This document shows, piece by piece, positions 57,001 to 60,000 of a DNA stretch of 64,000 nt. The position numbers are program-made. Source of the stretch: an uncultured delta proteobacterium (GTDB lineage: Bacteria; Myxococcota_A; Polyangia; Polyangiales; Polyangiaceae); NCBI GenBank assembly GCA_963827955.1, contig CAWHDJ010000018.1, positions 1,117,297 to 1,181,296 on the forward strand, in the 5' to 3' direction. Position 1 is the stretch's first letter; each line of letters begins with the position of its first letter.

Positions 57001-60000
57001 CGAACGGAGGGCGGGAAAACGGGAGAGTCAGGTCGACTAAACGGGGGATTGGCGCTGGAAGTCAAGCACCATCCGGAAACTCCAGGGGCCGGCGCGTGCC
57101 CCGGGGACCGACCCGGGGACCGAGCCGGCGCGTGCCGGGGGACGGAGGTTGCGGCGCGCGGGCGGGTTTGTTACGCGCCCCCTGGATGGATCGCTCCCGC
57201 CGGCTCTTCGTGATCCCTGCGCTCTCGGCGCTCGCCCTGGCCATCGGCTGCGCCGGTCCGCGGTTCGCGGCCCCGAATCGAGGGCGTCCCCATTTGCCAG
57301 GACTTCACCCTGGGGCACACCAAGATGATCGGAGGCCTGCGCTACCCGGTGCGCATGCGCGTGCTCGACGGCAAGACCGTGGTCTTCCAGACCACGATCC
57401 TGGGCCTCCGCAGCGCCGACGAGTCGGTGAGCACGTACATCGCCGACGACAACGCGAAGTACAAGGTCGAGTGGTCGCAGTGCGGCAACGAGCACGCGCC
57501 CCGCTCCGTCGCCGGAGAGGAGCAGGAGGGCAAGGCACGCGACAAGGGGCACGAGCGCACCGAGACCGAGGGCCTCGCGTACGTGTGCGGGGAGTCGAAG
57601 GTCTACGCGACCACGGCGCTCGAGACGAAGAAGGGCGACCGCTCCTCGCACCTCATCCACTTCACGCCCCCTCCGAACCCCGAGTGCTGGGCGTCCGAGC
57701 CGGCCAAGCCCGCCGCGGCCGCTCCCGATGCGGGCGCTCCCGATGCCGCCGCGGCTCCGGCGCCTGCGATTGCGGAAGATGCAGGGGCGAGTGGCGCGGC
57801 AGCCCCCGCGGCGAGCGACGCGGGCCCTGCCGCGAGCGACGCCGGCGCGGCGGCGCCCCCCGACGCGGGCGCGAAGCACTAGCTCACCGAGCGCGATCCA
57901 CGCGATAGAACCCCGGGCTCACGAGGCTGGCCCAGGAAGCTCTGGAGAAGCGCGTTCCCCGGCGCGTCTCCCTCTCAATCCGATCTCCCATGGTCCCGCG
58001 CGGATCCCGGCCGAGCCGGCCCCTCCGGCCCCTCCGGCACCGCGACGTCGCTCTCGTCTCCGTCGTGTGTGCTGGAGGGATTGGTTCTCACGCCGGGCGC
58101 CGTTTTGTGGGACGTTGTGGGACAGGACGAGGTGGACCCACCCGAGGCGAGCGTCGACCTGGGCAACGCTAGCGGTGACGGGAGCAACGCGAGCGGTGAC
58201 GGGAGCAACGCGAGCGGTGACGGGAGCAACGCGAGCGGGGAGGCAGGCGGCGCGAGCAGCGGCCGGCCGACGCGAGCGGTGGCCGGGCCGGCGCGAGGGG
58301 GGGCCTGCCCGGCGCGAGAGGGGCGAGGGTCGAGGCGAGCGTCGGCCAGGGGGGCGCGCGCGGGGGGTTGGCCGGGGCGAGGAGGGAGGTGGGCGGCGCG
58401 AGCAGGGAGGGGGGCGGCGCGAGGGTCGGGCTGGGCGAGGCGAGCGGCGGCCTGGGCGGGGCGAGGGGGGAGCTGGTCGGGGCGAGCGTCGGGGTGCCCG
58501 GCGCGAGCGGTGCGCGGTCGTGGCGAGCGATGGGCGGCCGGAGGTGAGCGATGGGTGGCTCGGGGCGAGCGTCGGGTGGCTCGGGGCGAGGGGGAGGGCC
58601 CGGAACGCGACGAGGCGGGTGGGTGGAGGGGGCGCCGCCACTTCCTGCGCGAGACGGCGCTCCAGCGCGTCGTGCGCGCGGCGGCCCTCGACGCCGAGCG
58701 GTCGAAGCGGGTCGGGGGCCACGCGCTCGGGTGCTCGTTCGCGACGCACCTGCTGGAGGCGGGCTACGACATCCGGACGATCCAGGAGCTGCTCGGGTAC
58801 CGCGACGTGAGCACGACCATGATGTACACGCACGTGCTGAACCGCGGCGGGCGGGGGGTGACGAGCCCGCTGGACGGGATTGTGCGGCCACGGAGGTAGG
58901 GCTCGGAGTCGGGCGGGCCCGACCGCGGGATGCCCGGGCGCGAGAGAGATTCAAGGCGGGGTTCAAGGAAAGGCGCCCCACGCTTCTCCAGAGCCTCCTG
59001 GGCCAGCCTCTGAGATCCTGACGCGGGCGTCCCCCGTGACTGACCGTCCCAGCGTCCCGTGGGCGTGGCCGTGGCCGGCTTCTCCCGTGCCCCGGATCCG
59101 GAGTCGGGGCACGGGCAGATTGGCCACGGCCACGGCCACGCCCACGGGGAGAGGCACGGCCTCCGGTCAATCTTTCCCGGACAGGAGGCAACGGGAAATG
59201 ACCGGGAAACCAAAGGGCCACGCCGCGCTTGTCAGGATCTCAGAGCCTCTCACGCCCGGGGCTCCGGTCCGCGGGCTGACGCCCGTGGGTTCCATCGTTG
59301 GAACGGCGTCATGCGCCATTCCGATCCCGTCATCGACGAGATACGCGCCGCCCGCGATGCCATCGTCAAAGAGGCGGAATACGATGGTTCCCAAAACCAT
59401 GGCGCTCGCACCAATTACCATGCCACGGGCTCCTCTGCCCCGTCCGGGCGACGCAACCGGCGCGTCGAGATCGTGGTCCAGCCCGTGGGTGTGATGCCCC
59501 GGTGACGCCCGACCCTGCGACGACCTCGAGGGCCTCGCGTGCTGCGCGCGACGCTCCTCGAGCGTCGCCGCAGCGCCCGGTCACTCCCCCCGGTTGCCGG
59601 TCGGCAGGGGCGTCAGGTTCACGATCGCCGTCACCAGCTCGTGGACATCGAAGGGCTTGGCGAAGAACGCGTCGGCGCCCAGCTCGCTCGCCAGCATCCG
59701 CGTTTGCAGGTCGGGATAGGCGGTCATCAGCACGACCGCCGTGCTCAGGTTGGCGTGCCGCAGCGCGGCGAGGATCTCGAGCCCCGTGAACCCCGGCATC
59801 CGGACGTCGGTGACGATGATGTCGGGCGGGCGCCGCACGCCGTCGACGAACGGCTCGACGAAGACCTCGGAGAGGAGATCGGAGCCGTCGCACGCTTCCG
59901 TGATCTCGAAGCCGAAGCCGCGGAGGGCGCACGCGCAGAGCTTCAGGATGTCCGGATCGTCGTCGGCCAGGAGGATGCGCGGCGGCTGCTCCGTCGCGAC

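Follow-up and report, generated by a model that had tools for sequence, protein, structure and literature searches.

In a 64-kb stretch of DNA from an uncultured delta proteobacterium of the Polyangiaceae (GenBank assembly GCA_963827955.1, contig CAWHDJ010000018.1, positions 1,117,297 to 1,181,296; below, the window), a gap of 1.7 kb between a gene of 185 aa (57325-57882, plus strand) and a response-regulator gene (59581-60066, minus strand) contains the end of an integrase gene, a tandem array of 21-bp repeats and a large nested hairpin. How did these three come to lie together, and does any of them still work? An earlier note, made from the sequence alone, took the region for a scar of mobile DNA, and this impression held: the tail of an integron integrase gene (intI), the array and the palindrome are all real. 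With a probability of roughly 0.6, we consider the gap to be a graveyard of mobile and low-complexity DNA, left by ordinary genome decay and containing no working system. The locus is a further instance of already known kinds of genome debris.

The integrase part is described by two features:

58069-58899, plus strand: mechanical open reading frame (ORF) of 276 aa, which runs through the array into the integrase tail
58630-58899, plus strand: intI pseudogene remnant, the last ~83 codons and the stop, recognised by profile, structure and DNA matches

This gene fragment originates from an integron integrase. The Pfam Phage_integrase profile matches only aa 193-257 of the ORF (profile positions 105-169 of 172, E 6e-14), whereas the NCBIfam integron integrase model TIGR02249 covers aa 188-270, which correspond to its positions 232-314 of 315, with 113-117 bits. 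The XerC/XerD models score lower on the same ORF (~61-67 bits), and the IntI equivalog NF011946 scores 80 bits. The IntI profile is thus the best one, as the earlier note had supposed when it described the catalytic tail of an integron-type tyrosine recombinase as the only surviving part (117 bits against ~65 for Xer); the His-II and Tyr positions are retained in this tail. The TIGR02249 score lies below the curated cut-off of 265 bits for full-length proteins. The best match among solved structures is residues 238-318 of VchIntIA, the integron integrase of Vibrio cholerae (PDB 2A3V). At the DNA level, a plasmid search matched the stretch 58633-58876 only; the matches, with ~74% identity, are intI3 and further genes for integron integrases, carried by more than 5000 plasmids. 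The last 114 aa of the ORF match P0001, a public protein of 114 residues (NCBI and ENA). The surviving remnant amounts to 26% of an intI gene, and a protein-family search revealed no N-terminal integrase remnant in any frame of 57883-58620. The additional domain specific to IntI occupies approximately residues 186-245 of VchIntIA (PMC3108266); it is missing in the ORF, where homology begins at about residue 238.

The remnant is not only short. When aligned to 2A3V, it retains H267 and the nucleophile Y302 and carries the changes R270G, H271C and H293Y. Box II reads HALGC instead of HxLRH, and LLGH has become LLGY; both motifs are retained in four of four close relatives. The earlier note had seen a truncated tail; the truncation is confirmed, and the description has to be completed by the mutations of two catalytic residues, Arg-II and His-III. 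Of the catalytic set, the ORF also lacks the whole regions of Arg-I and Lys. With these losses and that of the IntI-specific domain, the tail falls short of a functional member of the IntI family on every count. Judged from its sequence, the locus cannot act as a recombinase or an integron today. The pairwise ratios of nonsynonymous to synonymous substitutions (dN/dS) are 0.17-0.32 when the window copy is included versus 0.08-0.24 among the relatives, which suggests that the constraint on the tail has been relaxed. Seven substitutions specific to the window copy occur at positions invariant in the relatives. The GC content at the third codon positions of the tail is still 0.96-1.0. The 114-aa "integrase" P0001 is dead, a remnant that annotation should list neither as an integron nor as a recombinase.

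No traces of cassettes accompany the remnant. A motif scan of both strands of the whole 64 kb, cruder than the covariance model of IntegronFinder, revealed no attC-type R''/R' pair (RYYYAAC...GTTRRRY at a distance of 40-150 nt). The spacers 57883-58145 (z = +0.4) and 58897-59012 (z = +1.0) are no better structured than would be expected by chance, and therefore no attC is hidden there. As no attC was detected within 64 kb, the locus is neither an In0, which would be an integrase lacking cassettes, nor a CALIN (a cluster of attC sites without an integrase), nor a complete integron. It is an orphan intI pseudogene, which is a common state for intI genes. It has been reported that 10-46% of intI genes are inactivated, especially in soil and freshwater lineages (PMC3108266), and that intI pseudogenes are found near cassette clusters and CALINs (PMC4889954). 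The remnant resembles other inactivated chromosomal intI genes in that the IntI profile is the best one, the gene is partial, its catalytic residues are mutated and no cassettes are attached. It differs from them in its unusually short length (26%), in the fusion of its break point to a tandem array and in the lack of attC within 64 kb.

For comparison, 80 metagenomic loci were retrieved with the intI tail, 64 of which could be assessed. Open frames of at least 295 codons were found in ~50 of the 64, and ~12 (~19%) are truncated or frameshifted, with break points that vary between the loci. Thus, the truncated state of intI in the window is ordinary. The locus adds one more loss of an integron integrase in a large soil-bacterial genome, in agreement with the published pervasive inactivation outside marine and clinical integrons. 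The 120 top protein hits, all of 165 aa or less, had suggested that C-terminal tails of intI are retained preferentially; this was rejected, since most metagenomic relatives are full length and the short hits are explained by the selection of candidates and by short contigs.

Several of these relatives deserve mention. The L011 locus (JGI contig Ga0558117_08123) carries a genuine internal intI remnant with 80% DNA identity to the window tail. A palindrome of 125 bp with perfect 19-nt arms (GAGAGGGTGTTCCACAGGC) is located at 5852-5976 of this contig and abuts the break point of the orphan tail; its arm and the intI sequence just downstream have GGGTGTTCC in common. In L014, AT-rich foreign DNA precedes a truncated intI, and in L012 and L013 the gene is frameshifted. 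In L015 (a Logan contig of SRR11658487), a palindrome of 130 bp with 20-nt arms occupies positions 709-838, ~217 nt past the stop of a 78%-identical intI; its right end, ...TTAGGC, is reminiscent of an attC R' box.

The second component of the locus is the repeat array, through which the ORF runs:

58140-58620, no strand assigned: degenerate array of 23 units of 21 bp, G-rich on the plus strand, delimited by Tandem Repeats Finder (TRF) and a table of units

TRF reports a period of 21 over 58163-58590 together with a higher-order period of 84 bp. The identity is 98% over 3.6 copies at 58163-58238 and decreases to 66-75% in the remainder. The core GCGAG (unit positions 8-12) is identical in 22-23 of the 23 units, and the rest of the unit is 40-90% conserved; five such cores spaced 21 bp apart were never seen in 100 shuffles of the window. 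Two units, at 58245 and 58496, are 20 bp long owing to deletions of 1 bp. The GC content of the array is 0.82-0.85, with a skew of +0.37 to +0.48.

The pattern of variation within the array is that of codons. Unit positions 1, 4, 7, 10, 13 and 19 are ~95-100% G/C, with G and C freely interchanged, and A/T variants gather at the other positions. From block to block of the array, the GC content of this phase amounts to 0.86, 0.98 and 0.94; its register moves by one base precisely at each of the 20-bp units. Genes of the window have a third-position GC of 0.91-0.96, and noncoding stretches ~0.7. The tracking of the repeat register by the phased G/C suggests that the array diverged under a coding-type constraint and was frameshifted afterwards. 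A codon adaptation index was built on six confident genes of the window, the true frames of which score 0.86 ± 0.05. By this index, block 2 scores 0.78 and block 3 scores 0.75 when the minus strand is read in register, as heptads PLAPxxP, against 0.51-0.54 for the plus strand in register and 0.30-0.32 for the frame of the ORF. Only over the first block, 58140-58244, does the ORF frame coincide with the array's codon phase. The array is probably a frameshifted heptad minisatellite of the coding type that fits codon usage best when read on the minus strand, and its first block of near-perfect copies is probably a late expansion. Like the coding minisatellites of high-GC bacteria, which encode heptapeptide repeats, it has a period that is a multiple of three, a phase of G/C at third positions and higher-order units of 84 bp; unlike them, it is twice frameshifted and has no recognisable N- or C-terminal domain and no homologue.

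Almost all tandem repeats in the window have a period divisible by three, and small ORFs made of 18-bp repeats are found in relatives; arrays of this kind are therefore a normal feature of these genomes. One further array in the window (33900-34351, 7.2 copies of 63 bp, 92% identity) has a phase-biased GC of 0.33/0.72/0.88, and others with in-frame periods are located at 2572-2715 (39 bp) and 45004-45202 (48/81 bp). In the upstream 185-aa gene, the C-terminus (57691-57879) is also of low complexity and contains 15-bp and 21-bp repeats (AASDAGP units with GCGAGCGACGC) resembling the array core. Apart from the TAG at 57880, a single reading frame connects the 185-aa gene with the array's first block and with the intI tail. 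The spacer on the left side of the array contains 1.9 copies of the short direct repeat TTGTGGGACG (58105-58123). The pattern GCGAG every 21 bp was also tried as a probe for the array and abandoned as non-specific, having returned 55 unrelated tandem repeats among viral contigs.

The array and the tail are bracketed by an inverted repeat that had escaped the earlier note:

57906-57952, no strand assigned: left arm L of a 47-bp inverted repeat, starting 24 nt past the stop of the upstream gene 57325-57882
58981-59009, no strand assigned: inner part of the right arm R, recognised by its complementarity to L
59249-59266, no strand assigned: outer part of arm R, displaced by the hairpin, recognised by a match to L in a fixed register

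The 30-nt core 57923-57952 is 97% complementary to 58981-59010, and no such match was found in shuffles of the window. Once 59010-59248 is taken out, the following 18 bases agree with the reverse complement of 57906-57923 at 11 positions (fixed register, empirical P = 0.009); a looser test with gaps for the continuation of arm R gave P = 0.03. The four central mismatches of the outer part form a small inverted block (TCAC versus GTGA). In the extended alignment, the similarity on the inner side ends with the 30-nt core. The 64-kb window has no second copy of L/R, the L/R pattern is absent from viral contigs, and the plasmid search matched the tail only. The outer flanks carry no target duplication (cgata versus cggtc).

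By analogy, intI could have been brought here by an element that ended in L and R. In class 1 integrons and Tn402, IRi is located next to the 3' end of intI1 and IRt at the far end. As in integron transposons of the Tn402/Tn5053 type, one arm lies ~80-130 bp past the intI stop and its partner is on the other side of the unit. Here, however, the arms measure 47 bp and have no sequence relation to the 25-bp IRi/IRt; tni genes are absent, as is a 5-bp outer duplication. Given the outer flanks, the parallel with IRi/IRt stays an analogy. A direct repeat TTCAAGG(N5)TTCAAGG is located between the intI tail and arm R (58950-58975).

The third component interrupts arm R:

59010-59243, no strand assigned: nested palindromic element of 234 bp, delimited by arm pairs, fold and terminal repeats and read as similar to a miniature inverted-repeat transposable element (MITE)

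The palindrome downstream of the tail that had been reported previously is real and does consist of three concentric arm pairs; it starts 110 nt after the stop rather than immediately behind it. The pairs are 59005-59029/59224-59248, 59056-59077/59127-59148 (22 nt, perfect) and 59084-59099/59100-59115. The DNA fold has an energy of -104 kcal/mol versus -67 ± 4 for shuffled sequences (z = -9.3). The termini are perfect inverted repeats of 13-15 nt (CTCTGAGATCCTGAC), the 15-nt version being located at 59008-59022/59231-59245, and the direct repeat AGCCT is present on both flanks (59005-59009 and 59244-59248). The hairpin begins exactly where arm R stops, and arm R resumes past it. The hairpin splits arm R and arm L is uninterrupted, which is the pattern expected of a MITE-like insertion into one copy of the 47-bp repeat. 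Accordingly, the hairpin looks like such an insertion, with mobility deduced from this arrangement; the hairpin-free site would read ...GGGCCAGCCT followed directly by CTCACGCCCGGGG... Similarly to MITEs and palindromic intergenic elements (Correia, ERIC and those derived from the insertion sequence (IS) IS630), the 234-bp element is noncoding and has a long hairpin, perfect terminal repeats and a possible short flanking duplication, and its target appears interrupted in comparison with the uninterrupted paralogous arm L. Unlike them, it has no known second copy and no identified parent IS, and its 5-bp duplication, being nearly palindromic, is ambiguous. Should several copies of the hairpin exist, Polyangiaceae would gain a new family of MITEs. 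A search for repeats of the repetitive extragenic palindrome type in the 64 kb found only the inverted-repeat arms themselves and no other copies, and the ORFs across the hairpin (59059-59505, and 58169-59221 on the minus strand) have no match to protein families.

These observations can be combined into the following history. The intI gene would once have been on the plus strand, probably facing away from a heptad-repeat coding sequence on the minus strand; an element with the 47-bp inverted repeats L and R as its ends probably brought the two in together. A single deletion would then have removed the first ~230 codons of intI, its promoter and attI side and the 5' end of the repeat gene, welding the array to intI at about codon 232, with the junction near 58600. 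If the repeats are read on the minus strand, their 5' end points toward the 5' end of intI and the two genes are divergent, so that a single deletion gives the present junction. The array of ~22 copies that the earlier note described does exist and is decaying, and it counts 23 units; its supposed replacement of the 5' part of the gene is not needed and is better seen as a deletion with fusion to a neighbouring array. Later, the tail would have drifted and lost the catalytic Arg-II and His-III, and the array would have lost 1 bp at each of two places and, at its far end, recently expanded into 3-4 near-identical units. The 234-bp palindromic MITE-like element would also have entered arm R later, duplicating AGCCT.

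Several facts weigh against this reconstruction. The first block of the array (58140-58244), which holds the perfect copies, fits the codon usage of neither strand, and there is no coding signal in the 186-bp spacer to the left of the array. A comparison of units with one another in the manner of dN/dS gave 0.8-1.5 throughout, i.e., no purifying selection in any frame, strands and frames not being separated by it. The repaired repeat protein of the minus strand has no homologue at E ≤ 1e-3 among 5.8e9 proteins, so it is composition, by itself, that argues for the coding origin of the array. As for the hairpin, AGCCT is nearly its own reverse complement, and AGCCT/AGGCT also lengthen the inverted repeat; the target duplication could therefore be a mere extension of the latter. 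The hairpin has no second copy in the 64-kb window, and a search with its terminus in 185,579 representative genomes, a collection apparently without the source genome, returned five unpaired matches at chance level in unrelated phyla. With no second copy in the window or the collection, the mobility of the hairpin is unproven.

An array next to a hairpin is also found elsewhere in the window. At 27513-27764, 12 units of 21 bp (CGTCCACGAAGCACGTGGAGC) form an array with a super-period of 84 bp and a GC phase of 0.48/0.95/0.51, for which the minus strand is best; each unit contains a CCACG..CGTGG palindrome. Approximately 100 nt to the right of it, a nested hairpin of 212 nt is located (27862-28073, z = -9.1). 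The termini of this hairpin are GAGCGGCGTGCG, with a possible TA duplication. This second locus follows directly after a gene for a DUF6036 nucleotidyltransferase (26980-27498), and the minus-strand ORF of heptads (xSTxFVD) is free of stops until 26701.

Four other explanations were considered. The ORF 58069-58899 might be a live, domesticated gene for a repeat protein rich in Gly, Ala and Arg, in which the C-terminal integrase subdomain has a non-catalytic role such as DNA binding. Its frame is open over 276 codons, its last 114 aa have a counterpart in P0001, the third-position GC of the tail is high (0.96-1.0) and the pairwise dN/dS is below 1 (0.17-0.32). Stop codons are, however, rare in G-rich sequence, so the open frame means little, and over ~350 of the 480 bp (blocks 2 and 3) the frame is at odds with the array's own codon phase, its codon adaptation index there being 0.30-0.32. 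The protein cluster has a single member, the architecture occurs in none of the 80 metagenome loci or 120 top protein hits, and the seven window-specific substitutions affect positions that are invariant in the relatives; we regard a living gene as very improbable. It is unlikely, too, that the array is a noncoding repeat tract of the integron lineage, originally on the attI side of the integrase and joined to the tail via an inversion plus a deletion. This idea comes from L150 (metagenome contig WBZL01108807.1), which has a full-length intI with a tail 72% identical to that of the window and, ~250 bp upstream of it (positions 1-157), at least 8.4 copies of a 19-bp repeat (CGCCGGGCAGCGCCACTCG), an array cut off by the end of the contig. 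GCCCGGCGCGAG is common to the L150 unit and the window units, and short direct repeats precede intI in a few other relatives. This common 9-12-mer is, however, GC-rich, with an estimated chance of a match of ~0.01 across the arrays examined; the orientation to intI is opposite in L150, the periods differ (19 versus 21), the L150 array has no codon phase whereas that of the window is strongly phased, and a sizeable array was found at only 1 of the 80 loci.

The hairpin, for its part, had been suggested as a possible recombination site or structured noncoding RNA. Its exceptional fold (z = -9.3), its position 110 nt from the integrase remnant and the palindromes of 125-130 bp beside intI remnants or genes in L011 and L015 would be in line with a functional structured element, i.e., an attC-like or dif-like site for a tyrosine recombinase or a structured RNA. 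An attC site is typically ~57-141 bp long and has an imperfect stem with extrahelical bases and R''/R' boxes with AAC/GTT triplets. The hairpin has no RYYYAAC/GTTRRRY boxes, its 234 bp are about twice the usual attC length and its 15-nt and 22-nt stems are perfect. It has no sequence in common with the L011 and L015 palindromes, and the cognate recombinase is dead. In Rfam 15, no match reached the gathering score, the only hit being a sub-threshold chance match to snaR-A (24.6 bits versus 98). The terminal repeats point to a MITE-like element, and a function of the hairpin seems to us a faint prospect. There is, similarly, little reason to expect that a 21-bp array with a nested hairpin of ~220 nt is a recurrent two-part module of this lineage, to which the intI tail is incidental. 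The same layout does occur at 27.5-28.1 kb and 58.1-59.2 kb of one window, and at both loci the hairpin is on the minus-strand 5' side of the array. However, neither the two arrays nor the two hairpins have any sequence in common, each hairpin occupies one of the window's two largest noncoding-like stretches, in which an accumulation of junk would be expected, the splitting of arm R argues for independent insertion, and the observation is post hoc with n = 2. Co-accumulation of junk is the likelier cause of the recurrence. We would hardly expect, then, that the pair is an undescribed element specific to Polyangiaceae, such as a mobile or regulatory unit with the hairpin upstream of a minus-strand repeat ORF; in such an element, the integrase tail could be a passenger or a trace of the recombinase that moved it. 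The pairing, if it recurred genome-wide, would merit a separate study. Decay of mobile and low-complexity DNA is the reading that we retain for the 1.7-kb gap.

Between the hairpin and the response-regulator gene, one more feature was listed:

59311-59505, plus strand: ORF of 64 aa, probably not a gene, with no family and poor codon usage

This small ORF exists and, as noticed earlier, is lower in GC than its surroundings (~0.65 versus ~0.70); none of the searches supported its description as antitoxin-like. Even at E = 10, Pfam and NCBIfam gave no match, and a search of 1.84e9 representative proteins yielded nothing but a junk repeat ORF. The small ORF scores 0.37 in codon adaptation and has a third-position GC of ~0.72. 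Its C-terminus, GRRNRRVEIVV, presumably resembles the end of OmpA-type domains. The small ORF may be chimeric debris.

The GC content of the window is ~70%. The response-regulator gene matches Pfam Response_reg, and PaaA-like and creatininase genes are situated past it. The 185-aa gene has a 50% identical orthologue on the metagenome contig L007. A gene for an MMPL transporter (54035-56983, minus strand) near the locus encodes a protein that shares 69% identity with its Minicystis rosea counterpart and ~51% with proteins of Polyangium, which marks the source as a Polyangiaceae-like myxobacterium. The synteny of this gene was used to look for the presence or absence of the array, the tail and the hairpin in relatives, and it yielded no comparison, because the nearest relatives in the collections are at ~80% amino-acid identity or less and the gene order breaks exactly upstream of the MMPL gene. 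In two related Polyangiaceae contigs, L006 (4629-4904) and L008 (5745-6008), ORFs of 91 and 87 aa with no Pfam match, which consist mostly of 18-bp tandem repeats, are placed similarly upstream of the MMPL operon. In L006, a palindrome of 80 nt (4212-4291) is located ~350 bp upstream of the small repeat ORF.

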